DNA of 64,000 nucleotides from Ignavibacteriales bacterium (lineage in GTDB: Bacteria > Bacteroidota > Ignavibacteria > Ignavibacteriales > SURF-24), in the NCBI GenBank assembly GCA_003599415.1, contig QZKB01000047.1, positions 1,832 to 65,831 on the forward strand, in the 5' to 3' direction. The notes under the pieces are model-generated. The model saw only the letters and a program-made list of their open reading frames with translations, was not told the origin of the DNA and made no database searches. This document shows, piece by piece, positions 1,938 through 58,508 of the stretch. Each line of letters begins with the position of its first letter. The stretch's first letter is position 1. The position numbers were made by a program, and so were the translations under genes.

Positions 1938-1963
1938 TAATTTAAGGTTGAGGGGATTTTGAG

Positions 1964-3262
1964 ATGAAGTATAAAATTTTTCTGCTATTCTTGCTTACTG
2001 GTGGATTAGGAATTTGTCAATGGATCGAGCAGAACAGCGGCACCACGACTGATTTGTATGAAGTTTGTTTTACAGATTCTCTAAATGGTTTTGCATTGGG
2101 AAAATCAATTTTACTTCATACTACAGATGGTGGAAATAATTGGAGTTTTCAAAATTATTCATTTCAAAGCATAACTAAAATAAATGCTTATGATAAAAAT
2201 ATCGCAATCATAACTGGTGATTCTGAAGTTGTTTACATTACAAGAAATGGTGGTAAAAACTGGATAACATCCCGCACCGGATATCCTTATCACTATCACC
2301 ATTCTTCCTTTCTTAATGATAGTACCATTTATATTACAGGAACAATTCAAAAAGAATTTTATGGAGGGGGACTTATTTTAAGATCAACTGATTATGGCAT
2401 TAGTTGGGATAAATTGTATCAGACTAAATATGGAGTTGATCCAATTCCCTACTGGATTGATGATTTGTTTTTTACAAGTATCGATACAGGATACGCAATA
2501 TTCCACATTTCATTTGATAACTTTGGTCCAAACTATTTTATGAAAACTACAAATGGAGGTTATAGTTGGCTTCAAATAAGTGAAACACCCGGAATGGTTC
2601 TTGATCTTGAAAATAAAGATAATATCATATGGGCTAAAGCTGCTGGATTCAATTTTTCTACGGATTTTGGATTAACCTGGCAAATTGCTAATATCGCTTA
2701 CTGGGCAATATTGGATATGCATATTATAAAAGATAACTATGGTCTTTTTCTTATTTATGAATATTATGAAGATGCAATGAATAATAGATCAAAGTTAAGG
2801 TTTGCAGACATAACAGATAGTCTTTTTTACACCGTTTCCCTTCCTGATAGTTTTGTCGCCTATTCTTTTTCTTATGTAAATGAAAGGAATATTTGGTTAT
2901 GTGGTAAAGATGGAAAGATATTTAAATACAATACAACACCAGTTAATGTTATAGAAATTAATTCGGTTGAGACTATCTCTCTTTCCCAAAACTTCCCTAA
3001 TCCGTTTAACCCTGTTACAAAAATAAAATATACCATCCCTACCTCACCCCAGCCCTCTCCTTACCAAGGAGAGGGAGTAAGGGTGAGGTTGAAGGTTTAT
3101 GATATCCTCGGTAACGAGGTTGCTACTCTTGTAAATAAGGAGCAACCTACCGGAGAACATGAAGTTGAGTTCAATGCGAATAATCTTTCAAGCGGAATTT
3201 ATTTTTACGTACTTAATTTTGGCAATCAAAGGTTAAGTAAAAAGATGTGTTTGATAAAATAA
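1964..3262 (+). CDS. BNR/Asp-box (Ycf48-like) beta-propeller protein, T9SS cargo
   Basis: Signal peptide. Repeated SxDxGxxW-like motifs (TTDGGNNW, TRNGGKNW, STDYGISW, TTNGGYSW, STDFGLTW). T9SS tail 'NFPNPFNPVTKIKY...GIYFYVLNF...KMCLIK'. RBS-like GAGGGG upstream. Confidence 0.7.
   Translation: MKYKIFLLFLLTGGLGICQWIEQNSGTTTDLYEVCFTDSLNGFALGKSILLHTTDGGNNWSFQNYSFQSITKINAYDKNIAIITGDSEVVYITRNGGKNWITSRTGYPYHYHHSSFLNDSTIYITGTIQKEFYGGGLILRSTDYGISWDKLYQTKYGVDPIPYWIDDLFFTSIDTGYAIFHISFDNFGPNYFMKTTNGGYSWLQISETPGMVLDLENKDNIIWAKAAGFNFSTDFGLTWQIANIAYWAILDMHIIKDNYGLFLIYEYYEDAMNNRSKLRFADITDSLFYTVSLPDSFVAYSFSYVNERNIWLCGKDGKIFKYNTTPVNVIEINSVETISLSQNFPNPFNPVTKIKYTIPTSPQPSPYQGEGVRVRLKVYDILGNEVATLVNKEQPTGEHEVEFNANNLSSGIYFYVLNFGNQRLSKKMCLIK
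3041..3089. repeat. GC-rich imperfect palindrome, family 1, in frame inside a T9SS sorting domain
   Basis: ACCTCACCC-cag-CCCTCTCC-ttaccaa-GGAGAGGG-agtaa-GGGTGAGGT. The outer and inner arms are exact reverse complements. Translated as TSPQPSPYQGEGVR. Confidence 0.85.
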
Positions 3263-3271
3263 AGGGGAAAA

Positions 3272-5200
3272 ATGCTAAGATTTATTTGGATCTGTTTAAT
3301 CGTTTTTACAAGTGTTCTTTTTGCACAGGATGAAAAGGAGCTACAGGATTTACGAGGACTTGAAGATAGCTTAAACAATACTCATCTGTTTTACAGGATA
3401 TATGAGTTAGATAGAAACAGTATGGGTTCAATTAACTATGGATTAAATCCAGTATATCATCTTGACTTAAACAGCAAAACAGATACTTTATTTTTTATAG
3501 GTGTTGACAATGAACCTGTCGGATACTTTGAATCTATTTATGATTATGACTTCTGGAATAATGATCCTTCCAAATATATTTGCTGCGGTACTTACGGTGG
3601 ATTTGACGCAAGTGCATTCATTAAAAGATTTGACGGAGAGAAGATTTCAAATTGGAATGGACACTCACCCAAGATAAACATATCAAGACAAAATGATAGT
3701 TTAGTTTATGCCAACATTTGGAATCTCGTAACAATAAAAAGTTTTGATGGCGGAAGAAACTGGATAACATTACAAAAACAATTAGATTCTTCAGCTGGTA
3801 TAATTGCACTATCTCCTTTTAATGATAACTATTTATTTGCAATCAAAAACTCTTTTAATATTTATGCTTCTTCAGACGGAGGAGCAACTTATATTGATGC
3901 CGGCATTAAGACTAATGATAAAAGTAAATTTTATTTTGATTCTGATTCCAATCATGTTTACGCGCTTATTTGTCAAAGTGATTATGGCGATTCACCTGAT
4001 ATATGGTACCTGTTGGTTTCTGATGGACAGCCTGAGTTTTATTCATTTAAGAATAAATACTTTTTCGGACCAACTTATGATAAAATCCTTTTAGCGATTG
4101 ATGATTCCAGGTCAGGCAACCTATACGCCGCCATCAGAAACAGGATTTATAAATCAGAGGACTACGGAAATACCTTTTCTTTATATAAAACAATGCAAAG
4201 AAAGGTTACCGGCATTTATAAGAAACCCAATTCCGGTTTACTATACGTAATGACGAAATATAACATCCAGGAAATTTCTGATGATACTGTTAAAGTAATA
4301 AAGCAACTACAACCTTCTTTAGAATTTTTTAAATACTATCCATTGGCTGTTGGAAATAAATGGCTTTATTATGGTGAGTACAATAATTGGATTCATCCTC
4401 GCCAGTTTAGAGTACAACGTGAAATAACAGATTTTGTAAAGAAAAATAATGGTAATACCTATTTTGAAATAACTGAAAGCAGCGATATAGAAGAATTTCA
4501 AAATATCTATTATGAAAGAGTTGACTCAGCAACCTGCAATATATTTAGATACAATGCAGATTCAGTTAACTCCAATTCTGAATATATAATTGATGATCCT
4601 ACAATTGATTTAGGTGATACAGTAAAAAGTTTTAGGTTTCCTGATAGAGACAATTATACACTTCCGGTTTTTATATCTGATAGTGATACGAATTTGTTTA
4701 ATCAGTCCAGTCATTTAATCAATTTCATATACGGTAAGATAACAACCTGGTCATACTCACTTGCTAAGAATTTCGGAATTAAGTATGTAGCAAGTGGAAA
4801 CGACACCAGGTTTTATAATTGTAGTCTGATTGGAGCTTTAATAAATGGCGTTATATACGGCGATTCATCCGTAGTTAGCGTAAATGAAGATAAAAATTCT
4901 GCTATTACTTTTTCTCTTGCCCAAAACTTCCCTAACCCGTTTAACCCAACTACAAAAATAAAATATACAATCCCCATAGGGACGAGGCATTCCGCCGCAG
5001 GCGGATCGTCTCTACAAAATGTACAATTGAAAGTTTATGATATCCTTGGTAATGAGGTAGCAACTCTTGTAAACGAAGAAAAACCTGCCGGCGAATATGA
5101 AGTTGAATTAGATGGAAGCAAACTATCAAGTGGAATTTATTTTTATGTACTTAATTTCGGCAACCAAAGGTTAAGTAAAAAGATGTGTCTGATAAAGTGA
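3272..5200 (+). CDS. Asp-box repeat secreted protein, T9SS cargo
   Basis: Signal peptide. Asp-box-like motifs SFDGGRNW, SSDGGATY, SEDYGNTF. The T9SS tail ends in the same 'GIYFYVLNFGNQRLSKKMCLIK' as the upstream gene. Confidence 0.65.
   Translation: MLRFIWICLIVFTSVLFAQDEKELQDLRGLEDSLNNTHLFYRIYELDRNSMGSINYGLNPVYHLDLNSKTDTLFFIGVDNEPVGYFESIYDYDFWNNDPSKYICCGTYGGFDASAFIKRFDGEKISNWNGHSPKINISRQNDSLVYANIWNLVTIKSFDGGRNWITLQKQLDSSAGIIALSPFNDNYLFAIKNSFNIYASSDGGATYIDAGIKTNDKSKFYFDSDSNHVYALICQSDYGDSPDIWYLLVSDGQPEFYSFKNKYFFGPTYDKILLAIDDSRSGNLYAAIRNRIYKSEDYGNTFSLYKTMQRKVTGIYKKPNSGLLYVMTKYNIQEISDDTVKVIKQLQPSLEFFKYYPLAVGNKWLYYGEYNNWIHPRQFRVQREITDFVKKNNGNTYFEITESSDIEEFQNIYYERVDSATCNIFRYNADSVNSNSEYIIDDPTIDLGDTVKSFRFPDRDNYTLPVFISDSDTNLFNQSSHLINFIYGKITTWSYSLAKNFGIKYVASGNDTRFYNCSLIGALINGVIYGDSSVVSVNEDKNSAITFSLAQNFPNPFNPTTKIKYTIPIGTRHSAAGGSSLQNVQLKVYDILGNEVATLVNEEKPAGEYEVELDGSKLSSGIYFYVLNFGNQRLSKKMCLIK
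4977..5014. repeat. GC-rich palindrome, family 2 (long form), in frame inside a T9SS sorting domain
   Basis: TAGGGACGA-ggcatt-CCGCC-gca-GGCGG-a-TCGTCTCTA, with nested stems (one G-T pair in the outer stem). Translated as IGTRHSAAGGSSLQ. Confidence 0.8.
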
Positions 5201-5209
5201 GAGGTGGGT

Positions 5210-7522
5210 ATGAAAAAGATTTTAATATTTTTATGGCTGCCATTTATATTGAACGCTCAATGGATAAAACAGGAAAGCTACACTACAGAAAATCTGACAG
5301 ATGTTGTAATGCTTGATTCTGTTACAGCAGTTGCTGTTGGCCAGGGGCGCTCAATTTTAAGAACCAGTGACGCAGGTAAGACATGGAAGAACCTTACAAT
5401 TATGCTGTCGTCAGTGGTTCCATGGAATGGAGTTGCATTTGCAGATTCTTTAAACGGTGTAGTTGTTGGTGAAAATCAAATAAGGTTTTCATCTGATGGT
5501 GGTAGATTATGGAAGGTAAATACCCCACCCTACCGCAGAAAATTTCTGTCTGCTTTATATCCATTTCCGGGATTTATTTATGTCGGTGCTGATTCAGGTT
5601 GGATTTTTCATTCAACTGATACAGGAAAAACATGGTCCGCACAACAGATTGACAGCACTTCAATACGTGCTATATTTGCCTGGTTTAATGGTCCAACTGA
5701 ATGGATTCAAATTTTTGCTTTAACTCCAATCACTTTATATACAAGCTGGATGGTTACATCTTATCCATGGGAAAAAACTAATCTTCAGGTACAAGGACTT
5801 GGCTCAGAAATTTTTGATGGAGAATTCAGCCGCGATGGTAAGATAGGATATGTGGTTGGTGTTCAGGGAGATAAATGGCTGCAACCAAGAATATCCCGGC
5901 TAAAATTATTTGATACATCATGGACATCAATTGCGAACGGAATTACAGTTTCAGGAATTTTGCATGGTGTATCTGCACCATCTGAAAAGACTGTTTACAC
6001 CTGCGGAACAAACGGATTAATATTTAATTCAACTGATGGCGGAGAGAACTGGCAGAAGTACGATACACCTACCAGCCAAAAGCTTAATTCAATATCATTC
6101 TGTAATAACTCTGTTGGAATGGCAGTTGGAGATTCAGGAGTAATATTTTATACTTCCAACGGCGGAGTAATTCCGGAAATAACTGGTACGCTGATTCCAT
6201 ACGGCTTACAGGATAAAGTAATTACTTCACTGGCAGCAGAAGAATTAGATTACGGAGACAATTTATACATTGGCACAAATTGTCTTTTTGCAGGAACGGA
6301 TAAAGACGGTATTTTCAAAACAGATCCGTTAAGTAAACTGACAGAATGGACGCCGCTTGGACTAACAGGTAAATATATTAATGCTTTAAGTGTACAGTGC
6401 TGGGGCAGAGGTCCGGCAGAAGGATTGAAATTATTTGCGGCTGTTACTCCAAAATTTGAAGATAGTGATTCAACGCTGATCTATCAGAGAGAAGGATTTT
6501 TTACATCTGATACAATTTGGGCAGCTCTTGATAGTGGAATTGTTAAAACGAATACTTTAGTTAATGCAATCAACGCTTTTTATTATTCTGGTCATACTCC
6601 ACCGGGAAATATTTTAGCTGGTGCAAATTCAGGAATCTATAATTACAAAGTTGATTTCTGGGAGCAGGTAAATAACGATGCAAGTATATCTGATATTGAT
6701 GTATATCCGCATTGGTTTGGAAATTTAGTTTGGGCAACAGGAAATTACGGACGCGGTCCGTCAGCATTTAAATCTACTAACCGGGGAGAAACATGGAACC
6801 AGATATTTATACCTCATCCTCTTGATGGAAGTTCGTCTTCCGTTTGCATTAATACGCGCTACCCTGATTCAGTTTATTTTGCTGTTAATGGTTCAATCTA
6901 TCTTTCTCCTGATAGTGGAGCTACAATTAATGAAATATTTGCAAGCGCTCAGGGAAGTATCAAAGTAGTAGGGCTTGATCCATTAAAACCTGAAAATATT
7001 TATGCAGGCGGTTCAGCAGCACAAGGCGATTATTATTTTTGCAACAGTACAGATGGCGGAAAAACCTGGACTAGAGTTGAATCCTTTTTTAGCAGACCAA
7101 TTAAAAATATTACCTCAATTTCTGTTGTCAATAATCCATCCGGCAATGCTTTAGTTTTCCTCGGTACTGAAGGGACAGGTGTATGGTGTTACACATCTCC
7201 AGTGACAACTAATATCAAACCAGTTAAAATTATTCCGGAAGAATTTCGGCTGTACCAGAATTATCCTAACCCGCTTAACCCAACCACAAAAATAAAATAT
7301 TCCATCCCCGTAGAGACGTTGCGCGCATCGTCTCTACAAAATGTTACTTTGAAAATTTATGATATTCTTGGTAATGAAGTAGCTACTCTTGTAAACGAAG
7401 AACAACCTGCCGGAGAATATGAAGTTGAGTTAGATGGAAATAAACTAACGAGCGGAATATATTTCTATCAACTGAAAGTTGGAAGTTATATTTTAACAAA
7501 AAAAATGTGCTTAATAAAGTGA
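5210..7522 (+). CDS. Multi-propeller BNR/Asp-box (Ycf48-like) protein, T9SS cargo
   Basis: Motifs TSDAGKTW, SSDGGRLW, STDTGKTW, STDGGENW, STNRGETW, STDGGKTW. T9SS tail '...KMCLIK'. I prefer the ATG at 5210 (GAGG 6 nt upstream) over the GTG at 5204 given in the ORF track. Confidence 0.7.
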   Translation: MKKILIFLWLPFILNAQWIKQESYTTENLTDVVMLDSVTAVAVGQGRSILRTSDAGKTWKNLTIMLSSVVPWNGVAFADSLNGVVVGENQIRFSSDGGRLWKVNTPPYRRKFLSALYPFPGFIYVGADSGWIFHSTDTGKTWSAQQIDSTSIRAIFAWFNGPTEWIQIFALTPITLYTSWMVTSYPWEKTNLQVQGLGSEIFDGEFSRDGKIGYVVGVQGDKWLQPRISRLKLFDTSWTSIANGITVSGILHGVSAPSEKTVYTCGTNGLIFNSTDGGENWQKYDTPTSQKLNSISFCNNSVGMAVGDSGVIFYTSNGGVIPEITGTLIPYGLQDKVITSLAAEELDYGDNLYIGTNCLFAGTDKDGIFKTDPLSKLTEWTPLGLTGKYINALSVQCWGRGPAEGLKLFAAVTPKFEDSDSTLIYQREGFFTSDTIWAALDSGIVKTNTLVNAINAFYYSGHTPPGNILAGANSGIYNYKVDFWEQVNNDASISDIDVYPHWFGNLVWATGNYGRGPSAFKSTNRGETWNQIFIPHPLDGSSSSVCINTRYPDSVYFAVNGSIYLSPDSGATINEIFASAQGSIKVVGLDPLKPENIYAGGSAAQGDYYFCNSTDGGKTWTRVESFFSRPIKNITSISVVNNPSGNALVFLGTEGTGVWCYTSPVTTNIKPVKIIPEEFRLYQNYPNPLNPTTKIKYSIPVETLRASSLQNVTLKIYDILGNEVATLVNEEQPAGEYEVELDGNKLTSGIYFYQLKVGSYILTKKMCLIK
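7310..7337. repeat. GC-rich palindrome, family 2 (short form), in frame inside a T9SS sorting domain
   Basis: GTAGAGACG-ttgcgcgcat-CGTCTCTAC, a perfect 9-bp stem. Translated as VETLRASSLQ. Confidence 0.85.
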
Positions 7523-7593
7523 TTGCATAATAGGAAGTTTTTGGAGAGAAATATTTATAAAAATAAAAACAGATTTTAAGGATAGGGGTATTA

Positions 7594-10500
7594 ATGAAAC
7601 AGTTAATGTTGCTTTGGATGTTGATAATTTTAATAGCATTTAGTGCTATTTCTTATTCTCAATCCAATATTAGAACATGGACAGAAACCACAGTCCAGGA
7701 TTTTTCCGATGATCAACTTTTGAATTTAGTGATCACTAATAATTCGGGTGGTGAAGTACAATTTGCACATCCATTAATAAAAATTACCGAAGATAATATT
7801 GATAATTCAGTTCACCGTTTTATTGAAAGAGATAGTTCTGGAAGTTTTGTAAGAGCCCGGTTTCAAAGTGGAAATGTATATTTAGATAAATATTCTGAAG
7901 ATGGAAGATCACTTCTTAATTCAGTTCAGGTAAATGAACAAGGTGAAAACCCACATAATGACTACGATATCAAGGTTGCAATACTTAAGGATGGAATTTC
8001 GATTGTAATTTGGAGATGCACTAATTTTTATTGGTATGGTCAGATTTTTTCAAAACTGCTTACTAAAGTCGGTTCAAGTTTTAGGCTAAACGAGAGTGTC
8101 TCAGAATATCAGGCTTGTGTTTTCGCAGATAATGCCAACCACTCCTTTGGAATAATATACAGCCTAAATCTTACGACTAATTATAAACTTTTCTTTCAGA
8201 AAAGAGATTCTTCGGGAAATAAAACAACTGAAAGTGTTTATCTGAATCCTGATTATATAACAAAATATGAATTCGGTCCAACAGCTGTTAGTGATGATAA
8301 AGGCTTCTGGGTTGCCTGGGATGGTGCTGATGGAAATAGTACTTATGATTCAGATTTGTACATGCGTCGGTATACTTTTAATGGTGAACCTATTGGCAAC
8401 GCTTTTATCGTCAATGATAATTTACTAATGTTGCAAGGTGGAGCAGATTTAGCAATTGATAGTAATTCAAATCTTTTTGTTGTATGGATAGACGAAAGAG
8501 ATGGTATAGAACCAATAACTTCTGGACAATTAAATATCTATGGTCAAATTTTTAATTCTGACGGAATTAAAATTGGAAGTAATTTGAAACTCAATTCATT
8601 TGGAAACAGAAAAGAAAATACTTTACCAGATGTTGATTATAATAATGGAGAATATAAAGTTTCATGGCGCTACTGGGATGAAACCTACAGACGTTATTTA
8701 ATTCTAAAAAATTCTTGGAGGTTAGAGCCGAAAGATTATGGTGAGATAAAATCATCCATTTTTATGACGGATCCCAATGGTTCAAAATTCAATAAAATTT
8801 TTTGGAAACATAATAATTCTAATCAAGCACAAATAAAATTTAAATTAAGAACAGGAAAGACTCTTGATGATTTAGAAGAATCTCCTTGGTACGGCCCAAC
8901 AGATACACTAGGATTTTATACTAATTCAGTAGGAGAAAATATTTATGATAAACATTATGGTGATAATTATATTCAGTATAAAGCGTATCTGTATAGAGAC
9001 TCTAATTCTTCTCCCCAATTAAATGAGGTCTCAATAACCTACTCAGTTACTGATACGATCAGCCCCTCAGAGCCAACAAATTTACTTGCCACATCTAATC
9101 ATTCAGCTATTAAATTAAGCTGGGATAAAAATAAAGAAAATGATCTGATGGCATATAACATTTATAGAAGAACTGAAGGTGAAAATTATAATGAAGATAA
9201 CAAATTTATAGTTCAAAGACATGAATTGAGTTTTATTGATGTAAGTGCTACAACAGGTATAGTGTACTTTTATGTCATAGTTGCAATTGATTCAGCGGGC
9301 AATAAAAGCGACTATTCTAATGAAGTTTATGCTGAATCCTTTGGTTTATGTATTTATGTTAGTGAAAATGGGCAATCAATTGGAGAAGGGACAATAGATA
9401 AACCTTTTAGAACAATAGAAGAAGGCATGAAAAATGCCTTTTATGGAGATACAATTAAAATTTTACCGGGTAGTTATAAAGATCCCTTTACAATGAAAGA
9501 AGGAATTTCTCTGATAGGCTCAAATGCAGAAGAATGTAAGATCAACGTTTTAGTTGAAGCTTCCAATGAATCTCTGATTCAAGGATTGACTTTTACAAAA
9601 TCCATAAGATGTAGTTCAGCTTCTCCAATAATAACGGAAAATATTTTTAAAGGTGCATTTGATTCATATTCCCCAGCTATTTATTTGGAATTTTCATCAA
9701 ACCCGGTAATTAGTAAGAATTTTATAACTGATTGTGATAATGGCATTATTATTTATAATAGTAAACCTGCCATTCAAAATAATATTATACTTGTAAATTC
9801 TGTTGGAATAAATTTAGAGTCATCAGCAACAATTATTAATAATACAATAATTGCAAATAGATTTGCTGCACTGAATTTAAATTCACCCGAAAAATCAGTT
9901 ATTGAGAATAATATTCTTGTTACACTTGATGAAAATGCTATTGCATATCCGCGGTCAAATCCCGATAACAATTTAACAGTCTTCAATAACTTTTGGAATA
10001 AATACAAAACAAATACTATTGTTTCTTCGTTGAATACATTTCTGGATCCACAATTTGTAAATATAGATTTACAAGATTATCATCTTTCAGAAACTTCACC
10101 TTGTAAAAATGCTGGTCACCCAAATGTAACTTATAATGATGCAGACGGCTCCAGAAACGATCTGGGAGCTTATGGAGGTCCTGATCCAATAAATGGATCA
10201 TTATCTTCATCGTTAATAAGATCAATTTATGTTTCCTCACAATCTGGTTATCCGGGAGATACCGTATCAGTTTATATTAGCTTAGATAAAATTGTTGGTT
10301 TGGCAAAGGCAGAATTTGTACTTGAATATGATAATTCAATTTTAGAATTTCAAAGAGCAGAGTTGACGCAGGCTACAAAAGACTTTGTTCTTTCATATAG
10401 CTTAAGATCTCAAAAAGAAATTTGGTTTTCTTTATCTAATTCTACCCCACTAAATGAATTAAATAAAAACGTATTACTGTTAAAATTTGTTGTTAATCCG

Positions 10501-12438
10501 AATTCAAAACCAAATGATGCCAGCTCGTTGTCACTTAAAGAAGTTTTTCTAATGGCCACTAACTTAAAGAAGATAGACTTACGTAGTATTACTGATGGAG
10601 CATTTTTAGTTAATACAATTTCCGAAAGTGAAAATATGATTTTCGTAGATTCAAAATTTACTGGTAAAGAAGATGGTCGGCGTAACACACCATTTAATAC
10701 AGTAACAGAAGGAATTAATAAAGCAAAAGAAGGTGATACAGTTTTTGTTTATGGTGGCGACTATAACGAACCAATTATAATGAAAGAAGGCATTCATCTT
10801 ATCGGAAGTGGGGCTTCAGTTACAAAACTAATTTTTTCATTTGATAATATGGCTTTGGGTTTTTATAATATCAAAAATGCTGAAGTAAGTGGATTCACAA
10901 TAAAAACTGACAATACACACTTTTTCACTCCAATGATTGAATGCATTTCTTCTTCTCCTTTAATTAAAAATAACAGATTTGAAGTTGATAAATTATCAGA
11001 TGATTTCATTTCATTATCAAAAGGTTCATCTGCGATATTAGAGAATAACTTTATTAGCAATGTTGCTATAAGTATATCAAATTCAAACCCTATAATAAAA
11101 AATAATATTGTTGAGAATATTGGTTGCGGAATAGGCTCGGAACCATTGATATTAAATAATATTTTTACAGGTTTAATTAGTGGAGAACCATTTGGTGCTT
11201 ACAGATCAAAACCTGTTTTGAGAAATAATCTGATTTATTGTTCCGGTGGTGGAATAGGTATTTCTTTAATTGAATCGGATAGCTCTAAAATTTATAATAA
11301 CCTGGTAATAGATAAAAGTCTAACAGGAACAGGTATTAAATTGATCAACACCTTTAATTCAGAAATTATTAATAATTCACTTATCACTGGTGGGAAAGGA
11401 ATAGAAGAAATCGGTTCCGTTGCCACTTATTATAATAACATTGTAGTGAATAATAATAACTTTGGTCTGTCACTCTCGCTTTCATCATCATACAATTACA
11501 ATGATGTCTGGAATAATTATACTGACTATTTAGGCATAAGTCCGGGGAGTAATGATATTTCTGCCAATCCATTATTTGTTGATACAGCAAAAGGTGATTA
11601 CAGATTATCATTCAATTCTCCGTGTAAAAATGCCGGTCATCCGGATGCAAAATATAATAATCCCGATGGATCAAGGAATGATATTGGTGCATTCGGTGGC
11701 CCGTTTGCTGATTCTACATCGTTAAATTCATCCGGAAGTTCTCTTTCTATTGATTCGTTGAACGCTTCTTCATCTGATACTATAATAGTTTCTATAAGCG
11801 GAAAGGATTTGAAGGACGTGTTGGGACTTGAATTAGCACTATCTTTTGATCCGGCAATACTCAAGTTCATTAATGCCAATGCCGGAAGCACCACTAAAAG
11901 TTTTGCTCTTCAAAAATCTAACTTAGACAACTCTTCTGTGAACCTGTCGTTAACCGGAAGTAAGAGTTTACAAGTAGATAATGGTGAACTGATTAACCTG
12001 GTTTTTAAATCAAAGTTGAACTCATCAATGAACACCACCATACACTTCGATAGTGCAAAGATCAAAGATGGGAATACATTCGTGCGGAACATATTCAACC
12101 TGAAAGACGGTAATATTAAAATTACTTCCGGGATCAATAATTCAGATGATGAATTAATTCCAAAGAACTTTGCTTTATACCAGAACTTCCCTAACCCGTT
12201 TAACCCAACTACAAAAATCAGGTTTGATATTCCTACGGAAGGTAAGGTTACACTTAAGGTTTTTGATATTTTAGGCAGAGAGGTAACTACATTAATTAAT
12301 GAGATTAAGAAACCCGGTAGTTATGAAATTGATTGGAATGCGGGTAAATTATCAGGCGGATTTTCTTCTGGTGTTTATTTCTATCAGCTTAGTACAGCTG
12401 ATTTCGTTCAAACAAGAAAAATGATTTTAATGAAATAG
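7594..12438 (+). CDS. 1614-aa surface protein: N-terminal region, FN3, two [parallel beta-helix + cohesin-like] modules, T9SS tail
   Basis: Signal peptide. FN3-like 'PSEPTNLLATSNHSAIKLSWDKN...YNIYRR'. Two beta-helix blocks each end in 'SPCKNAGHP..Y(N)..DGSRND(L/I)GA(Y/F)GGP'. Two cohesin-like beta-sandwich blocks. Tail 'NFPNPFNPTTKIRF...GVYFYQL'. Confidence 0.7.
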   Translation: MKQLMLLWMLIILIAFSAISYSQSNIRTWTETTVQDFSDDQLLNLVITNNSGGEVQFAHPLIKITEDNIDNSVHRFIERDSSGSFVRARFQSGNVYLDKYSEDGRSLLNSVQVNEQGENPHNDYDIKVAILKDGISIVIWRCTNFYWYGQIFSKLLTKVGSSFRLNESVSEYQACVFADNANHSFGIIYSLNLTTNYKLFFQKRDSSGNKTTESVYLNPDYITKYEFGPTAVSDDKGFWVAWDGADGNSTYDSDLYMRRYTFNGEPIGNAFIVNDNLLMLQGGADLAIDSNSNLFVVWIDERDGIEPITSGQLNIYGQIFNSDGIKIGSNLKLNSFGNRKENTLPDVDYNNGEYKVSWRYWDETYRRYLILKNSWRLEPKDYGEIKSSIFMTDPNGSKFNKIFWKHNNSNQAQIKFKLRTGKTLDDLEESPWYGPTDTLGFYTNSVGENIYDKHYGDNYIQYKAYLYRDSNSSPQLNEVSITYSVTDTISPSEPTNLLATSNHSAIKLSWDKNKENDLMAYNIYRRTEGENYNEDNKFIVQRHELSFIDVSATTGIVYFYVIVAIDSAGNKSDYSNEVYAESFGLCIYVSENGQSIGEGTIDKPFRTIEEGMKNAFYGDTIKILPGSYKDPFTMKEGISLIGSNAEECKINVLVEASNESLIQGLTFTKSIRCSSASPIITENIFKGAFDSYSPAIYLEFSSNPVISKNFITDCDNGIIIYNSKPAIQNNIILVNSVGINLESSATIINNTIIANRFAALNLNSPEKSVIENNILVTLDENAIAYPRSNPDNNLTVFNNFWNKYKTNTIVSSLNTFLDPQFVNIDLQDYHLSETSPCKNAGHPNVTYNDADGSRNDLGAYGGPDPINGSLSSSLIRSIYVSSQSGYPGDTVSVYISLDKIVGLAKAEFVLEYDNSILEFQRAELTQATKDFVLSYSLRSQKEIWFSLSNSTPLNELNKNVLLLKFVVNPNSKPNDASSLSLKEVFLMATNLKKIDLRSITDGAFLVNTISESENMIFVDSKFTGKEDGRRNTPFNTVTEGINKAKEGDTVFVYGGDYNEPIIMKEGIHLIGSGASVTKLIFSFDNMALGFYNIKNAEVSGFTIKTDNTHFFTPMIECISSSPLIKNNRFEVDKLSDDFISLSKGSSAILENNFISNVAISISNSNPIIKNNIVENIGCGIGSEPLILNNIFTGLISGEPFGAYRSKPVLRNNLIYCSGGGIGISLIESDSSKIYNNLVIDKSLTGTGIKLINTFNSEIINNSLITGGKGIEEIGSVATYYNNIVVNNNNFGLSLSLSSSYNYNDVWNNYTDYLGISPGSNDISANPLFVDTAKGDYRLSFNSPCKNAGHPDAKYNNPDGSRNDIGAFGGPFADSTSLNSSGSSLSIDSLNASSSDTIIVSISGKDLKDVLGLELALSFDPAILKFINANAGSTTKSFALQKSNLDNSSVNLSLTGSKSLQVDNGELINLVFKSKLNSSMNTTIHFDSAKIKDGNTFVRNIFNLKDGNIKITSGINNSDDELIPKNFALYQNFPNPFNPTTKIRFDIPTEGKVTLKVFDILGREVTTLINEIKKPGSYEIDWNAGKLSGGFSSGVYFYQLSTADFVQTRKMILMK

Positions 12439-12450
12439 GTCGAGGGGAAG

Positions 12451-14442
12451 ATGAAAACTGTTTTAACATTTGTATTGGTTTTATTATCAAGCATAATTAA
12501 TATTGCTGCGGAAGAGATTTTATACGTTCAGTTCTCTGCAGATACAGTAAAAATCTGGAATAAGACTGAACTAAATTGCTGCTCATTAATAAGGTTTGAT
12601 GTTGAAGTCAGCGAAAACAAAATTAAACTTGTTGAAGTGGATACAGCTAAAAACTGGTGTTACTGTGACTGTAAATTTAATCTCTGCGCCTCATTAACCG
12701 GATTAACACCCGGCAGTTATAAAGTTGATGTTTACAGAAACTTGCCTATAATATATCCAAAAGATTCTCTAATCTTCATTGGCTCGTTGGAGTTCATTTA
12801 TCCAAACAACTTAATAACAGGCTCGTATCAAAGTAAATGTTTAAATCTGACAAAGAGCAATAGTGATAACTTTAATACTGATTCATTGTATATAGAGTTT
12901 GCTGGAGATACTGTAAAAATCTGGGATGCAAATGCTGAAGAAAACTGTTGCGCATTATTCAAAATGGAAGCAGATGTTGATAACACAAACATATTTATAA
13001 CTGAAGTAGACACAACTGCAGATCTATGTAACTGTATTTGTAAATTTAATCTATGCACTATATTAGTTGGATTACAACCGGGACATTATCGTGCAGATAT
13101 TTACAGGTCTCATCCAAAAATTTGGAGTGATACATCCATCTTTATCGGCAGCATTGATTTTGATTATGGACTACGAACTTATTCAACAATAAAGGTGAAA
13201 TCTTACCAAAGCGAATGCTTGAATGAAACAGAAGAAGTAATTTATTCAAACTCATTTGAAACATCGCAGGATACAGTTGGCTGGCAGGGTATTATGGATT
13301 TCAGAAATGATGCTCCTGTAAACGGAGGAAGTCGCTCACTCTTTATTTCGGATGGTTGTATTATTCCTCATGCCTGGGTAAACGCAGTTACAATTGCTGA
13401 AGAAGGTTTATACAGCTTACGATGCTGGGGAAAAAATTTAATGCTTGGCGGGACAATTTATTTACAGGTTGGCAGCCGTAGTCTCGACCGTAGCTACATT
13501 CAGATCGTGGATACTTCATGGACATTTTATGTTAGTCCGGATACACTACTTTGCGTCGAAGGTGACACATTATTGTTAGCAATGTATTCCGGTGGGCTAA
13601 TTCAGAGTGCAATGCTTGTTGACAAAATTGAAATTGCCAGAATAGGAACTCCTGAAGGTCATACTGCAAAATATTGGAAAGACAAAAGTTATTCTTCTGT
13701 TGAAAGATTCTTATCCGGTGCAAAGATTCAGCATATATCTGCCGATAATGTAAATCTTAATGGTGAAGCATTGAGATGGAAGTTCAGGTTTTCAAGATTT
13801 ATAAATGAGAGTTATCCCCTGGAATATATTTACTTGCATAGTAATTATAATGATGTGGTGTACGACAGCATTTCAACTCTACCTTTAGTTGGTGGTCAGA
13901 ATATCATTGATGAATGGATAGACAGTGATGCTGCTATTGAAAAAGCTGAATTGCTTGGTGGCAGTACTTTCAGAAATGATTACCCTGATTATGTTATTAA
14001 CGCCGGGCTTTATCAGGCTTTGGTACCTGATTCATATCCTATTTGGGAGATTATTTCTAAATCACAAAGTGATCCCACTAAAAAACTATCTCTTATTATT
14101 GATGCACGGGATTTAAATACCTGGAATGATCCTGATGATAATTATCCGAAGGAATTTTCTCTTTCTCAAAACTACCCTAACCCGTTTAATCCAACCACAA
14201 AAATAAAATATTCTATTCCTACCTCACCCCAGCCCTCTCCTTACAAAGGAGAGGGAGCAAGGGTGAGGTTAAAGGTATATGATATTTTAGGTAATGAAGT
14301 TGCTACTCTTGTAAATGAAGAACAACCTGCCGGAGAATATGAGGTTGAGTTGGATGGAAGCAAATTTTCAAGCGGGATTTATTTCTATCAACTGAAAGTT
14401 GGAAATTTTATTGAGACAAAAAAATTACTGCTCCTTAAATAG
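12451..14442 (+). CDS. Secreted protein with tandem Cys-rich N-terminal repeats, T9SS cargo
   Basis: Signal peptide. Two repeats of about 100 aa share 'GDTVKIW...NCC..F......I...EVDT....C.C.CKFNLC....GL.PG.Y..D.YR'. T9SS tail 'NYPNPFNPTTKIKY...GIYFYQLKVG'. Confidence 0.6.
   Translation: MKTVLTFVLVLLSSIINIAAEEILYVQFSADTVKIWNKTELNCCSLIRFDVEVSENKIKLVEVDTAKNWCYCDCKFNLCASLTGLTPGSYKVDVYRNLPIIYPKDSLIFIGSLEFIYPNNLITGSYQSKCLNLTKSNSDNFNTDSLYIEFAGDTVKIWDANAEENCCALFKMEADVDNTNIFITEVDTTADLCNCICKFNLCTILVGLQPGHYRADIYRSHPKIWSDTSIFIGSIDFDYGLRTYSTIKVKSYQSECLNETEEVIYSNSFETSQDTVGWQGIMDFRNDAPVNGGSRSLFISDGCIIPHAWVNAVTIAEEGLYSLRCWGKNLMLGGTIYLQVGSRSLDRSYIQIVDTSWTFYVSPDTLLCVEGDTLLLAMYSGGLIQSAMLVDKIEIARIGTPEGHTAKYWKDKSYSSVERFLSGAKIQHISADNVNLNGEALRWKFRFSRFINESYPLEYIYLHSNYNDVVYDSISTLPLVGGQNIIDEWIDSDAAIEKAELLGGSTFRNDYPDYVINAGLYQALVPDSYPIWEIISKSQSDPTKKLSLIIDARDLNTWNDPDDNYPKEFSLSQNYPNPFNPTTKIKYSIPTSPQPSPYKGEGARVRLKVYDILGNEVATLVNEEQPAGEYEVELDGSKFSSGIYFYQLKVGNFIETKKLLLLK
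14221..14269. repeat. GC-rich imperfect palindrome, family 1 (second copy), in frame inside a T9SS sorting domain
   Basis: Differs from 3041-3089 at 2 of 49 nt (my hand alignment). Translated as TSPQPSPYKGEGAR. Confidence 0.85.
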
Positions 14443-14630
14443 AACTGTAACATTTTAAATTTTATGGAAAAGTACATCGCCTTTCAGTAATAAATAAATT
14501 TTCTGCGAAGGAATAATCCTTGTTGTTATTTGTATAAAGTACTCAACTTTTGCACTCCCCTTTTTTTACCTTTATCAATTATTCATAATTTCTATCTTTA
14601 AAAGTGAAAGGAAACAAAAGGAGGTTTATT

Positions 14631-16389: not shown

Positions 16390-16401
16390 TTTAGCAAGCA
16401 A

Positions 16402-16421: not shown

Positions 16422-16438
16422 TCTTTTATTTCTGATTA

Positions 16439-17368: not shown

Positions 17369-17373
17369 ATAAT

Positions 17374-41640: not shown

Positions 41641-41646
41641 CATTTT

Positions 41647-41754: not shown

Positions 41755-43119
41755 ATGCGAGACAACAAATTTCACATTCACGTAAATGATATGCCGAACA
41801 AATGGTATAATATTCTTCCGGATCTTCCTGTACCATTAGCACCACCAATTCATCCCGGGACAAAAAAACCGATTAATCCTGAAGACCTTGCAGCAATTTT
41901 TCCAATGGAATTAATCCAACAGGAAATGAGTCCTGATAGGTTTATTGAAATTCCGGATGAAGTACTGGATGTTCTTTCCTTAAGCAGGCCAACACCAGTC
42001 ATCAGAGCTTACAGGTTAGAGAAAGCGCTCGATACTCCTGCCAAAATTTATTTCAAGTATGAAGGTGCAAATTCATCCGGAAGTCACAAATTAAACACGT
42101 CAATTGCACAGGCTTACTATAATAAAAAAGCCGGCATTAAAAGGATTGCAACTGAGACAGGTGCTGGTCAATGGGGCAGTGCGTTGGCAATGGCTTGTAA
42201 TCATTTTAATATGGAATGCCAGGTATTTATGGTAAAAGTAAGTTTTCAGCAGAAACCTTACAGGAAATCATTGATGCAGTTATTTGGCGCTGAAGTAATT
42301 CCAAGTCCGTCCAATCTTACAAACTCCGGAAGGAATGTTTTGGCACAATATCCGGATTCTCCCGGTTCACTCGGCATTGCAATTAGTGAAGCAGTTGAAG
42401 TTGCTGCACAGCGTGATGACACAAACTATTCACTTGGGAGTGTGTTGAATCATGTCTTACTGCACCAGACAATTATTGGTGAAGAAGCAAGATTGCAGAT
42501 GGAGATGGCCGGAGATTACCCGGATATAGTTATTGCTTGTGTTGGTGGCGGAAGTAATTTTGGTGGAATCGCATTCCCATTCCTAAGGGACAAACTTACC
42601 GGAGATAAAAAAGAACTTGAAGTTATTGCAGTGGAACCGGCTTCCTGTCCTACATTGACCCGAGGTAAATTCACATATGATTTTGGAGACGAAGCAGGAT
42701 TTACACCTTTACTTAAAATGTACACGCTCGGGCATAATTTCATTCCGGCAAAAATTCATTCAGGCGGATTAAGGTACCATGGAATGTCACCAATTGTATC
42801 TCACTTAAAGAGTCTTGATTTAATTAAGGCTGAAGCTTATTATCAGAAGGAAGTATTTGAAGCGGCAGTTCTATTTGCCCGTGAAGAAGGAATTGTTCCT
42901 GCACCTGAAAGTTCACATGCGATTAAATCTGCTATTGAACAGGCTAATAAATGCAAAGAAAGCGGAGAATCAAAGACTATCTTATTCAACCTTTCAGGAC
43001 ATGGATTTTTAGACCTTGCTGCATATGATGCATATCTTAGTGATCACCTTGAAGATCATGAAATGACTGAAGAAGAAATTGCAGAAAATGTAAAAGATCT
43101 GCCTGAAGTATTAGTCTAA
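41755..43119 (+). CDS. trpB: TrpB2-type tryptophan synthase beta-like PLP enzyme
   Basis: 454 aa (long TrpB2 form). '[14 protein letters not shown]' PLP-lysine motif, 'VGGGSNFGG', 'GGLRYHGM'. AGGAG RBS. Confidence 0.8.
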
Positions 43120-55433: not shown

Positions 55434-58400
55434 CTATTTAAGCAGAATTAATTTCCTTGTCTGAGCATAACTTCCGGCTTTTAGCTGGTAAAAGTAAATT
55501 CCGCTTGTCAGCATACTTCCTCCGCCTTCGGCGGACAGTTCTACTTCATATTCTCCTGCAGGTTGTTCTTCGTCCACGAGAGTTGCAACTTCATTACCAA
55601 GAATGTCATAGACTTTTAATGTAACAACTTGTAGAGACTGTCCGCCTGCGGTGGAATACCCTGTCTCTGCGAGTGGAATTGTATATTTTATTTTGGTAAC
55701 CGGATTAAATGGATTCGGATAATTCTGGTAAAGTTTAAATTCAGTTGGATTGGCATCTCGGTTTACGGATTCAACTTCCGTTAATGTTGAGTTTATGTAT
55801 CCTGGTGTACCATATTTGCCTGCAGCAGAAATCCAGTTACCCGGTAAATCATTATCAAGCATCGGAGCTTTCAGTTCTAATGTTGCACCGGTACCGTCAG
55901 CCTCAACGGGCCAGGAGAATTTATTATCGTAATGAACTGAATCGATAAGAAAACCATTAGAAGAATACAATCTTACAACTTCACCTTTATTATTTAGCCC
56001 GTAACCGAAATTACCTGTCTTATTCCTTACTAACGTAAAACAAGAATTGAACGAACTGGTATCTTTGCAAATAACTAAAAAATTTCTGCATCCAATCTTA
56101 GTGCCTTCAGGAAAAATAAAAGGAGACTCATCATTTTCATCTTTCAATATCCAGCCAGACAGGTTAACAAGCGTATCTTTCCTGTTGTATAACTCAATCC
56201 AATCTTCGCTATTGAATAAACCTGATGAGTTATAATTAATTTCGTTTATAATGATAAGGTTACTATCGCTGAACACTTCCTCTTCAAAGTAAGCAATTAG
56301 CAAAGAATCTTTGTCGGGTATAATTTGTAAGCACGAATTGTAAATTGTTGAATCACCATGCCTCCAGTATAAAAACCTGTAACCAAAGTAAGGCACGGCT
56401 TCAACAGTAAAAGGAATTCCTTTAAAGTATTTTCCTTTCAAACCAGGTTCGGGTATCTGCCAATTGAAAAATTTTAATTTACCAGCTTCCGTAATATTAG
56501 ATGAGATTGTAATACTAACAGTGTCACTTATTTTAAAATACTCCATCATATGTTTCCAGGAATAGTTCTGTCTTTCTCCAGCAAACTCTCTAAGTTCTTC
56601 AACATTCTCATTCCACTCCTCAACAGAATTAAATGTTGGTTCTGGAGTCCATCCAACCTCACTAAAATCGGGATCTACTTTACCGCCCCATTTGGTTATA
56701 TGTCTTGGAATTTCTTTGGCAATTATATTCTGCAGGCTATCGATATATTGAATTACATTACCAGGTTCAAAAAGCGTATTCATTAAATAAGTATAGCTCT
56801 GGATAAATTTATTTTTAAATTCTTTGTTCATTAATAATCTTCTGAACAGCAGGTTTGACCATGGTGGATTGGGCCAGCTTGGTCCGTTAGATGCTGCAGC
56901 AACAGCAATTGAATTTGTAGTTGTATAAATAAAAACCTGGTCCATATCGTAATTAATCCAGCGCCATTTTTTATAATTACCCGAGTTTGCTTTCCAGTAT
57001 CTTATGTTATTTCCAGGCCAGTCTCTTTCCGCAAGATAGATATGACCTATTTGATAGTTAATATACTGATCAACATCCATAAGTGTTTTAACATATTCAT
57101 AATGAATAGTCTGAGCCATGTCCTTGGATCTGACATAGTTCAGCATATTATTATATGCAGTGGCAGTACCGGCAATAATGTTTGCATTCCTTTCCAGCAG
57201 ATCAACTTCACTTGCCGGAACATTAAAATTCTCTTCAAAATAATGTTCATTAATTTTTTCCCTTATGTTGTGAATGCCCCAGTATTCTCCGTTTAGAAAA
57301 ACTACGGCAGGCCGAAATGCCTGGTAATCAATATCAAGTTCTTTTGACAGAATAGTGTGAGCCAACCCATCACGGAACATTGTAAAGACCTGGTCATCAG
57401 AAGAGCTTCGCAATAAAACGGATTCGAATTTATCAATATTCTTATCAGCAAAAAATTTATATTCAAATGAACCTTTACCGTAATCGCTTCGAGCAAACAG
57501 CGCCAGAGATTTTTGCGGGTATCTTGTACGCGAACAGCCGCCGAAAATTTTTATTCCAGCCAACTGATTAATTCTCTGTTCACCCGTTGATTCATAAAAC
57601 TCAAAATTAACCGGGCGTTCCCAGTCCTGGTTTACATTACGAATTTTGGGATCGCATTCGCCGTAAGTGCCGTTTGTTCCGGTAACATAAATTCCGATCT
57701 TATCATCAAAAAAGTTATCCGGGTCCGTTACAATAGAAACGACAGGAAGATTAATCTCTTCATTAATAAAATAAGTTTGCGTTACAACTTCGCTTGGAAC
57801 CATTCCTTCTGAAAATGCTTTTGCTCTTATTGCAGTAGTTGAATCCAGTTCTATTGGTTTAGTATAAAGTTCGGATGAATCATCAGGCGGAGTACCGTCT
57901 GTGGTAAACCTGATTCCCGCAGACGAATCGTTTGAGGATAAAGTTAATTGCTGATGTCCTTTATAAAATCCTCCTTTCAATGAAAAATCCGGTTCTTTAG
58001 TGAATCCATTAATATATTCTGCACTATTTATTTTTAACGGCGTTGGATGAGAGAAATATCCCCAGGAATTAATATCACCCTGAAGCCTGCCAAAAGACAT
58101 ATCATTTTTCTGCAGCCCGAATGTTATTGAATCAACCACATTACCGGAAGGATCGTACAATCCAATATATTCTCCATCCTTATCAAGTTTGAAATTTGTA
58201 TGTAGAAGAGTATCTCTGCCGTCAGCCCAGAATATTTTAGCATTTACTGAACCAATGAGTGAATGATCCGGGATTTTCCATTTGTAAGGATTTGCCGCAT
58301 CATCGGTTAAATAATACCCGGAAATATCAATTACTACCTGATTGAAATTTACTATTTCAATCCAGTCACTATACTCGGAAAAATCAAAGCTGACATTTGT

Positions 58401-58508
58401 AGAAGTGTTGGAAGCAAGAATCTCGTTGATATAAACTTTTGAAACCTGTGCGGTGCAGGTTTCCATAAGAATCCAAATACAATACAATAAAACAGATTTC
58501 GGTTTCAT
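55434..58508 (-). CDS. CotH-family protein flanked by lamin-tail (LTD) domains, T9SS cargo
   Basis: LTD-like 'VYINEILASN...DWIEIVNF...ISGYYLTDD' and 'IINEINYNS...DWIELYNR...LSGWILKDE'. CotH-like core ('GGCSRTRYPQKSL', 'FLNGEYWGIHNIREK'). T9SS tail. Confidence 0.65.
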   Translation of the reverse strand: MKPKSVLLYCIWILMETCTAQVSKVYINEILASNTSTNVSFDFSEYSDWIEIVNFNQVVIDISGYYLTDDAANPYKWKIPDHSLIGSVNAKIFWADGRDTLLHTNFKLDKDGEYIGLYDPSGNVVDSITFGLQKNDMSFGRLQGDINSWGYFSHPTPLKINSAEYINGFTKEPDFSLKGGFYKGHQQLTLSSNDSSAGIRFTTDGTPPDDSSELYTKPIELDSTTAIRAKAFSEGMVPSEVVTQTYFINEEINLPVVSIVTDPDNFFDDKIGIYVTGTNGTYGECDPKIRNVNQDWERPVNFEFYESTGEQRINQLAGIKIFGGCSRTRYPQKSLALFARSDYGKGSFEYKFFADKNIDKFESVLLRSSSDDQVFTMFRDGLAHTILSKELDIDYQAFRPAVVFLNGEYWGIHNIREKINEHYFEENFNVPASEVDLLERNANIIAGTATAYNNMLNYVRSKDMAQTIHYEYVKTLMDVDQYINYQIGHIYLAERDWPGNNIRYWKANSGNYKKWRWINYDMDQVFIYTTTNSIAVAAASNGPSWPNPPWSNLLFRRLLMNKEFKNKFIQSYTYLMNTLFEPGNVIQYIDSLQNIIAKEIPRHITKWGGKVDPDFSEVGWTPEPTFNSVEEWNENVEELREFAGERQNYSWKHMMEYFKISDTVSITISSNITEAGKLKFFNWQIPEPGLKGKYFKGIPFTVEAVPYFGYRFLYWRHGDSTIYNSCLQIIPDKDSLLIAYFEEEVFSDSNLIIINEINYNSSGLFNSEDWIELYNRKDTLVNLSGWILKDENDESPFIFPEGTKIGCRNFLVICKDTSSFNSCFTLVRNKTGNFGYGLNNKGEVVRLYSSNGFLIDSVHYDNKFSWPVEADGTGATLELKAPMLDNDLPGNWISAAGKYGTPGYINSTLTEVESVNRDANPTEFKLYQNYPNPFNPVTKIKYTIPLAETGYSTAGGQSLQVVTLKVYDILGNEVATLVDEEQPAGEYEVELSAEGGGSMLTSGIYFYQLKAGSYAQTRKLILLK
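55631..55670. repeat. GC-rich palindrome, family 2 (long form), in frame inside the CotH gene's T9SS sorting domain
   Basis: Coding-strand sequence GCAGAGACAGGGTATTCCACCGCAGGCGGACAGTCTCTAC matches the 4975-5014 segment (the 4977-5014 copy plus flanking bases) at 31 of 40 positions (hand alignment). Translated as AETGYSTAGGQSLQ. Confidence 0.8.

Follow-up and report, generated by a model that had tools for sequence, protein, structure and literature searches.

REP-like palindromic repeats recur in frame in one loop of type IX secretion sorting domains of Ignavibacteriales

We analyzed a 64,000-nucleotide stretch of DNA from an Ignavibacteriales bacterium (assembly GCA_003599415.1, contig QZKB01000047.1, positions 1,832 to 65,831 of the forward strand), here called the window, to which all positions refer unless another locus is named. 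It contains two copies of a 49-nt GC-rich palindrome, F1, each lying in frame in the C-terminal sorting domain (CTD) of a putative type IX secretion system (T9SS) cargo protein. [quoted passage not shown] In agreement with this proposal, we found that the loop harbors many insert families in Ignavibacteriales and that one family takes the place of another at orthologous positions. Probably, selfish REP-like palindromes, kept in frame, persist where a transient export signal has a permissive surface loop and have spread, or replaced one another, among paralogous tails, most simply by short-tract gene conversion.

F1 is a palindrome read in frame in two sorting domains

The GC content of F1 is about 60%, while that of the window is about 35%. 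Both copies noted in the preliminary description were recovered, the exact 49-mer (ACCTCACCCCAGCCCTCTCCTTACCAAGGAGAGGGAGTAAGGGTGAGGT; copy F1a) and a copy on the same strand that is identical at 47 of the 49 positions (F1b; Table 1), and dinucleotide-preserving shuffles of the window gave 0 chance matches. F1 consists of four blocks, ACCTCACCC-cag-CCCTCTCC-ttaccaa-GGAGAGGG-agtaa-GGGTGAGGT, and is palindromic as a whole. The outer arms (9 nt) and the inner arms (8 nt) are each perfectly complementary, as had been described. The two substitutions between F1a and F1b both fall in unpaired spacers (TTACCAA/TTACAAA and AGTAA/AGCAA). The RNA is predicted to fold into a two-stem hairpin of -37.9 kcal/mol (z = -5.5), with 0 of 200 shuffled sequences folding as well, and the DNA fold (-19.6 kcal/mol, z = -5.3) was not equaled by any shuffle either.

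F1a lies in open reading frame (ORF) 1964..3262, where it reads TSPQPSPYQGEGVRVR, and F1b in ORF 12451..14442, where it reads TSPQPSPYKGEGARVR; the peptide is presumably translated in both tails. Both ORFs matched the Pfam model PF18962 (Por_Secre_tail) with 38.7 and 37.4 bits (Pfam cut-off, 27), and both copies sit between the motifs KIKY(T/S)IP and LKVYDILG, so that the reported common position within the domain was confirmed. The N-terminal parts of the two proteins are unrelated, judging by their Pfam domains. A homology search showed the product of ORF 1964..3262 to be 100% identical to a database protein (P0121) named [quoted passage not shown]. Of the nine sorting domains in the window, five carry a GC-rich insert in the loop between strands β1 and β2, and four have a short loop (TEGK, ATEK, EKSK, and the slightly longer ASLTNQN), which bears out the earlier observation that tails without an insert have about four residues here. 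The suggestion that the palindrome would give almost the same peptide in either orientation did not hold: the reverse orientation would read TSPLLPLLGKERAGVR, and three of the six frames are open.

Two other identities were rejected. F1 is not an intrinsic terminator, since its hairpin lacks a T-run: the sequence downstream is TGAAGGTTTATG, and neither copy was reported by a scan of positions 1-20000 for intrinsic terminators and promoters. An assembly artefact was rejected as well, since independent assemblies and isolate genomes contain these elements too. Rfam gave no match at gathering score anywhere in the window, and permissive E-values around F1a yielded chance-level, miRNA-like matches only.

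The element is not part of a duplicated tail and is replaced at orthologous loops

The preliminary description had named two findings that would speak against its proposal, namely, that the two copies stem from one recent duplication of an entire tail cassette or that the segment is an ordinary conserved part of a CTD subfamily. We tested both, and neither holds. Between the F1a and F1b tails, the element is 96% identical (47/49), whereas the 80 nt upstream and the 173 nt downstream, all of them coding, are 72 to 73% identical, and the differences begin 2 to 10 nt from the element. Moreover, in the part downstream of the loop, the F1a tail shows its highest identity (82%) to the neighboring tail, which carries F2a, an insert of another family described below, and the F1b tail shows its highest identity (81%) to the one with F2b, while the F1a and F1b tails are 72% identical to each other. 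Insert family and tail phylogeny therefore disagree, and a recent duplication of the cassette is rejected. A conserved subfamily segment is ruled out by the plain loops found in about half of the related tails, by the presence of at least 13 insert families, and by orthologues that carry different palindromes.

These orthologues came from several loci. A locus of a sister genome, L253 (GCA_037975375.1), is syntenic with the window at 82 to 93% nucleotide identity. It contains four F1 copies, three of them identical to F1b with 45-nt flanks that are 82 to 93% identical, plus a three-block derivative; the 49-mer is thus invariant at all 49 positions in four paralogous copies whose adjacent flanks are 82 to 93% identical. 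The L253 orthologue of ORF 1964..3262 retains F1. The L253 orthologue of ORF 12451..14442 carries in the same loop a different palindrome, TCCCCCC-tcgt-TCCCCCC-tttatcaaa-GGGGGGA-caaat-GGGGGGT (SPLVPPFIKGGTNGGF), although the flanks are 89% (upstream) and 85% (downstream) identical to those in the window, with 85% identity over the whole gene. The poly-C/poly-G palindrome of L253 is shared by a further protein (P0241) at the orthologous loop. The L374 orthologue of ORF 12451..14442, with 71% protein identity, instead carries a palindrome of the F2 type that encloses a mini-hairpin, and a more distant relative (P0244; 62% identity over 61% of the query) has SNIKLQPSN. Similarly, an orthologue of ORF 1964..3262 with 72% identity (P0122) carries the different insert TSFLSPRERKSEGQVR. 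No PF18962 hit is listed in the precomputed Pfam annotation of P0122, so repeat inserts may lower domain-model scores enough for sorting domains to escape detection. Taken together, gain, loss, or replacement of the inserts outpaces the divergence of the tail around them.

The tails themselves evidently serve as substrates of homologous recombination through which whole cargo genes are added or removed. Genes 3272..5200 and 7594..12438 are missing from L253, and both junctions (window positions 3263-5200 and 7290-12156 compared with L253 positions 1-3050) lie inside sorting-domain coding sequence, indicating that tails recombine. In addition, the tail of gene A (ORF 1964..3262) in L253 resembles a product of recombination between the F1a and F2a tails.

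The β1-β2 loop is a hot spot in Ignavibacteriales

We collected 235 parsable tails from three protein searches, nearly all from Ignavibacteriales or Ignavibacteria metagenome-assembled genomes where the source was named. In the set least biased by the query, which was selected via the N-terminal BNR domain, 50 tails have the 4-residue loop and about 56 have inserts of 8 to 28 residues, suggesting that roughly half of Ignavibacteriales sorting domains carry an insert at this place. Counts of peptide motifs gave at least 13 recurrent families. The commonest is SPYQGEG (F1), and others include VET..SLQ (F2), poly-C/poly-G (PPL..GG..GG), VTLSGVEGS, VTLRQAQSD, VIASEAKQS, PPNLP.GEA, and VG.SLMKF. 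Small inserts are also found in two other CTD loops. The proposed colonization of one loop by an element of REP or MITE type is consistent with this diversity and with the replacements described above.

We then asked how these inserts fold. Among all 56-nt segments of 201 kb of Ignavibacteriales DNA (mean minimum free energy [MFE], -6.5 kcal/mol; standard deviation, 3.5), ten reached -28 kcal/mol or lower, F1a being among the most stable, and nine of these ten lie in the β1-β2 loop; some loci of this set had been fetched for containing such a tail, and four of the nine are neighboring L253 tails that were not the target of the fetch. In six further loci, hairpins were strong for F1 variants and weak or absent for several other families (MFE z of about 0). 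One F1 variant (L247) has a two-sided change of the inner stem, CCCTCCCC/GGGGAGGG, that keeps the pairing.

In the long contigs L248, L249, L250, and L252 (ENA), many CTD genes are split into adjacent ORFs of 70 to 300 amino acids, which suggests long-read frameshift errors or pseudogenes. Such split ORFs may explain the short proteins returned by the first protein search.

The insert is predicted to form a coil

An AlphaFold2 model of the F1a tail, based on 98 aligned sequences, is a seven-strand β-sandwich (pLDDT, 87; pTM, 0.77), and its Foldseek matches include the CTD of a translocon-bound T9SS substrate (8glk_D) and the CTD of mirolase (8qb1_A). Insert residues 21 to 33 (PTSPQPSPYQGEG) are modeled as coil with a pLDDT of about 66, between strands 13-20 and 34-42. 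This supports the earlier placement of the insert in a surface loop, except for its end: VRVR, encoded by the 3' outer arm of F1 (GTA AGG GTG AGG), is modeled as the start of β2 and not as loop.

The F1 core occurs in many bacteria, mostly at places that look intergenic

Further copies of F1 had been expected, and they were found in the syntenic sister genome, embedded in CTDs and between genes of other Ignavibacteriales, and as a core in distant bacteria. The three-block core of F1 was detected at more than 120 viral-contig loci (33 to 73% GC) and the four-block form at at least 119 GTDB genome loci; among the matches listed, the latter come from Anaerolineae, Enterobacter, Klebsiella, Pseudomonas, Nostoc, Verrucomicrobiota, Nitrospirae, Omnitrophica, Armatimonadota, Acetothermia, Rhizobium, and others. 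A Box C-type core, named after the class of repeats that F1 resembles most (see below), is thus spread over nearly all bacterial phyla. In 59 of the 99 listed four-block copies whose spacers measure 3 nt, the two spacers complement each other fully, compared with 7.7 expected; palindromy itself is therefore maintained across the F1 family, being either selected or generated.

Most of these core copies look intergenic. The exact 34-mer common to the window F1 copies occurs on seven metagenome contigs (37 to 55% GC), in none of them in a T9SS tail. It lies just after a stop codon in L240 and L242/L245, in frame in an aminotransferase of the DegT/DnrJ/EryC1 family in L241/L246 (PF01041, E = 3.9e-51; L246 8827-10221, minus strand), and in frame in an FGE-sulfatase-like protein in L243/L244 that has three such inserts (L244 11201-12535, minus strand). 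Four-block copies are also in frame in LeuRS-like, CheA-like, and other long ORFs (genome loci L135, L127, L226, and L213), and all but one of the seven four-block ORF copies checked use the frame that reads P(S/H)PxPSP..GEG.GEG.

Ignavibacteriales have extragenic copies as well, located at gene 3' ends in the manner of REPs. Two were seen behind CTD genes in other Ignavibacteriales metagenome-assembled genomes: a complete F1 at a distance of 5 nt from the stop codon (L249 11675-11723) and a GTAGGGG..CCCCTAC palindrome at a distance of about 25 nt (L252 12779-12807). These two were the only related intergenic copies seen in about 200 kb of surrounding DNA, and no intergenic copy of F1 or F2 was found within the window. 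F1 is therefore a promiscuous repeat that is either intergenic or read through, resembling in this respect the palindromic elements of Rickettsia.

Other palindromes in the window

Three further window genes carry palindromes of a second family, F2, in the same loop (Table 1), with the peptides VETLRASSLQ, IGTRHSAAGGSSLQ, and LAETGYSTAGGQSLQ. Sequences of the 28-nt F2 form, GTAGAGACG-N10-CGTCTCTAC, were found at more than 120 viral-contig loci (35 to 69% GC); their centers vary yet stay palindromic, and the arms contain inverted CGTCTC sites. We found no literature on the F2 sequence. A 15-nt mini-hairpin, TCC(R)CCGCAGGCGGA (also written TCC(R)CCG(M)AGGCGGA), is nested in F2a and F2c and recurs at L253 positions ~4960-4975 and L374 positions 2255-2299. 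For ORF 12451..14442, the L253 orthologue contains the mini-hairpin in a later loop but the gene in the window does not, and the mini-hairpin thus behaves as an independent module.

Table 1. Positions of palindromes, host genes, and empty loops in the window
Feature	Position	Strand	Description	Basis
F1a	3041..3089	+	F1 palindrome	Exact match and RNA MFE
F1b	14221..14269	+	F1 palindrome	47/49 match to F1a; 100% identical to three L253 copies
Host gene A	1964..3262	+	BNR/Ycf48-like, with T9SS type A sorting domain (tail 2999-3262)	Pfam PF14870, PF18962
Host gene B	12451..14442	+	663-aa protein, otherwise unrelated, with a sorting domain like that of gene A (tail 14179-14442)	Pfam PF18962
Empty reference loop	12235..12246	+	TEGK, sorting domain of ORF 7594..12438	
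Further empty loop	24939-24950	-		
Further empty loop	58700-58711	-		
F2a	4976..5015	+	Same loop of ORF 3272..5200 (IGTRHSAAGGSSLQN); outer arms TAGGGACGA/TCGTCTCTA	
Mini-hairpin in F2a	4991-5005	+	TCCGCCGCAGGCGGA, nested in F2a center	
F2b	7310..7337	+	28-nt palindrome GTAGAGACGTTGCGCGCATCGTCTCTAC, same loop of ORF 5204..7522 (VETLRASSLQ)	
F2c	55631..55670	-	F2-type palindrome, same loop of ORF 55434..58508 (LAETGYSTAGGQSLQV)	
Mini-hairpin in F2c	55641-55655	-	TCCACCGCAGGCGGA, nested in F2c	
Stand-alone mini-hairpin	55521..55535	-	TCCGCCGAAGGCGGA, later loop of ORF 55434..58508 sorting domain (ELSAEGGGSM)	

Some other CTD inserts have a block order similar to that of F1 (C-block, C-block, loop, G-block, and sometimes a second G-block) but different blocks, namely, TCCCCCC/GGGGGGA in L253 (4833-4880) and CCCCTCC/CCTCCCC/GGGAGG in L251 (10067-10099 and 11838-11870). 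This shared architecture suggests a superfamily of palindromes resembling the triplex motif.

The window also has ordinary intergenic hairpins unrelated to F1 and F2, at 16401-16422, 41605-41673, 43144-43167, and 44437-44611. One of them is terminator-like (AGGGTGAGAGAATTCTCACCCT followed by a T-run) and lies between convergent genes; others lie upstream of a gene with a PALP domain (ORF 41755..43119) and between the genes for a response regulator and a 2Fe-2S ferredoxin.

How the palindromes may have come to occupy the loop

The explanation we favor is the following. F1, which belongs to the Box C/TMECO class of palindromes and resides in the β1-β2 loop of T9SS type A CTDs, would be a non-autonomous REP-like repeat. 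This loop would tolerate extra residues because it is surface exposed and because the tail is a transient export signal that, in Bacteroidota, is cleaved off after secretion (PMC10994853), while insertions elsewhere or out of frame would be purged. In addition, the CTD surface that contacts the translocon (SprA/PorV) is poorly conserved (PMC10994853). The spread and mutual replacement of copies would be due mainly to gene conversion in short tracts, for which the many paralogous tails provide immediate flanks that are 80 to 93% identical. Hairpin-targeted insertion may also contribute, because palindromes are nested inside palindromes. The host would need neither the peptide nor the hairpin, and the weak folding of several insert families argues against a general need for a stable hairpin.

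Several points weigh against this explanation. The window ORFs that were scanned contain no domain of a Y1 transposase (RAYT), an IS200-type transposase, or any other transposase, and neither a target-site duplication nor a clean pair of empty and filled alleles was seen among the loci recovered, which fit true insertion as well as gene conversion. The invariance of F1 at 49 of 49 positions would fit strong sequence-specific selection equally well. Furthermore, with about 40% of the CTD surface lying buried inside the SprA/PorV pore during export (PMC10994853), a loop longer by 10 to 24 residues is not obviously harmless there; CTD cleavage and T9SS function in Ignavibacteriota are carried over by analogy from Bacteroidota. 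The enrichment in a single loop of 4 codons is so extreme that selection alone may not explain it. Finally, of the three open combinations of frame and orientation of F1, one is common, which fits descent or conversion but could also reflect a constraint on the peptide.

An unlikely alternative is that the structure itself is useful to T9SS cargo genes, either in the mRNA, as a hairpin located about 60 codons upstream of the stop codon and able to slow ribosomes or stabilize the message, or as a DNA hairpin, triplex, or G-rich structure that promotes tail recombination, tail exchange, and cargo gain or loss. Such selection would account for the location of nine of the ten most stable hairpins, for the convergence of unrelated palindrome families on one loop, for the invariance of F1 down to third codon positions among paralogues with differing flanks, and for the pairing kept in the L247 variant; the recombination form also agrees with the two gene-content junctions inside CTD tails and with the link between TMECO motifs and genomic instability in E. 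coli (PMC4666352). Yet about half of the related tails have no insert at all, several common families have little or no hairpin potential, orthologues swap between families that differ widely in sequence and stability, and the same element occurs in intergenic DNA and in unrelated genes elsewhere. Moreover, the hairpin is not terminator-like and matches no Rfam family, and Box C showed neither promoter nor terminator activity in earlier work (cited in the introduction of PMC4666352); the mRNA form of this alternative is weakened.

It seems quite doubtful that the loop palindromes are, as structured DNA/RNA modules at a fixed point of the tail, a built-in device of Ignavibacteriota T9SS cargo genes, acting as recombination or exchange sites that drive tail swapping and cargo turnover (with which the gene-content junctions inside tails would agree), timing translation of the export signal, or both. 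If true, the Box C-type and GTAGAGACG-type palindromes found across bacteria would for the first time be given a definite role in the cell.

We regard as highly improbable that a hairpin-specific single-stranded DNA transposase (RAYT/TnpA-REP or IS200/IS605-like), encoded elsewhere in the genome, inserts the palindromes at a DNA target in the CTD loop. The GTTAC motif that directly follows the loop in most tails could be such a target, and the sharp element boundaries, with flank differences starting at 2 to 10 nt, the mini-hairpins nested in F2 centers, and the GTAG and CTAC ends of F2 and GTAGGGG..CCCCTAC, which are those of E. coli REPs, are all compatible with an enzyme of this kind. More than 13 unrelated families would need the same target, however, and two other CTD loops as well as unrelated proteins without common flanking DNA contain inserts too; no target-site duplication was seen, and none of the window ORFs scanned encodes such a transposase.

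Vertical inheritance of one ancient insertion, with tail-cassette duplication and a peptide that is a conserved, possibly adaptive extension of the loop, has next to no chance: although all F1 tail copies share one orientation and frame, all five window tails of the KVYDILGNEVATLVNEE subfamily have an insert, and the L253 orthologue of ORF 1964..3262 retains F1, our sequence comparisons contradict it, given that the element is far more similar than its flanks, that insert families cross the tail phylogeny and differ between orthologues, that many tails of the same subfamily have plain 4-residue loops, that the insert is modeled as low-confidence coil, and that identical DNA occurs outside CTDs in other phyla.

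Significance

Box C/TMECO repeats, REPs, and in-frame palindromic elements in Rickettsia are already known. In open-access papers and preprints, we found no report of palindromes concentrated in one T9SS CTD loop or of rapid family replacement there, nor of in-frame Box C-type copies across phyla. REP and Box C palindromes are among the most abundant bacterial repeats and have been treated as extragenic. With several hundred tails, about half of them with an insert, the Ignavibacteriales loop offers a natural and densely sampled system in which to follow gain, loss, and conversion of palindromic repeats, and it would represent a second, broader example of translated selfish DNA after that of Rickettsia. 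The inserts also map positions of the T9SS export signal that tolerate 10 to 24 extra residues, which could be useful for the engineering of secretion tags and for understanding substrate acceptance by the SprA/PorV pore. Lastly, they account for recurrent odd peptides in protein databases, such as PSPYQGEG and VETRHASSLQ.

Comparison with known systems

F1 resembles REPs and their BIME arrays in being a short, imperfect, GC-rich palindrome with many copies, some of them just after stop codons. REPs are by definition extragenic and species-specific. Those of E. coli start in GTAG and finish in CTAC, and such GTAG...CTAC termini, typical of REPs, also mark F2 and the GTAGGGG family. In contrast to REPs, F1 and F2 sequences are conserved across phyla, no RAYT was found among the window ORFs scanned, and both window F1 copies lie inside ORFs, while related copies in L249 and L240 are extragenic.

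The closest relative of F1 is the Box C/TMECO class of palindromes, also called PIT and described as "intrastrand triplex" motifs, of which F1 is a low-GC, four-block variant. The published pattern is CCCTCNCCC-N3-6-GGGNGAGGG-N3-GGGNGAGGG, with 9-nt stems in which no more than one triplet is mismatched (Holder et al. 2015, PMC4666352). The right-hand blocks of F1, CCCTCTCC / GGAGAGGG / GGGTGAGG, follow the same order of a C-block, a loop, and two G-blocks, and GGGTGAGG placed antiparallel on GGAGAGGG gives allowed purine-motif triads (G·G-C, A·A-T, T·A-T) at 8 of 8 positions, a matter of sequence compatibility only. Like F1, the class is multicopy and widely conserved among bacteria, with paired inverted arrangements in E. 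coli. The strict pattern does not match F1 on either strand, as each 9-nt stem is one terminal base short: F1 has 8-nt blocks instead of 9-nt ones, a 7-nt AT-rich loop, spacers of 3 and 5 nt, and a fourth block that makes it a complete palindrome. Of the TMECO motifs, 3610 were counted in 262 proteobacterial genomes, always intergenic in E. coli K-12 (PMC4666352), whereas F1 lies in frame inside coding sequence of an Ignavibacteriales host with about 35% GC. For this class, a switch between G-quadruplex and hairpin has been discussed as well (Kaplan et al. 2016, PMC5100583).

Rickettsia palindromic elements (RPEs) are, according to the summary of Ogata et al. 2000 in PMC10969869, palindromic repeats of about 100 to 150 bp that lie in frame in genes, occur in Rickettsia only, and are scattered over unrelated genes and sites. 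They share with F1 the reading of a palindromic repeat as an extra peptide, the apparent tolerance of fold and function, and the presence of several families per genome (PMC10969869). F1 and F2 differ from them in being elements of 15 to 50 nt whose families are common to many phyla, which are concentrated in one loop of one domain family and are quickly replaced; F1 (49 nt, in Ignavibacteriales) is set apart from RPEs by length and host, not by sequence comparison. Intragenic ERIC and Correia elements and other bacterial MITEs are likewise small non-autonomous repeats that sometimes give in-frame fusions (PMC10969869). MITEs have terminal inverted repeats, target-site duplications, and lengths of 100 to 400 bp, whereas F1 measures 49 nt, is one single palindrome, and has no flanking direct repeat in the window and L253 copies examined.

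As for the host domain, it is a regular member of the T9SS type A CTDs (PF18962/TIGR04183) by Pfam score and by its modeled fold. It departs from the canonical domain, which has a short β1-β2 turn, in a loop that is longer by 10 to 24 residues derived from repeat DNA.

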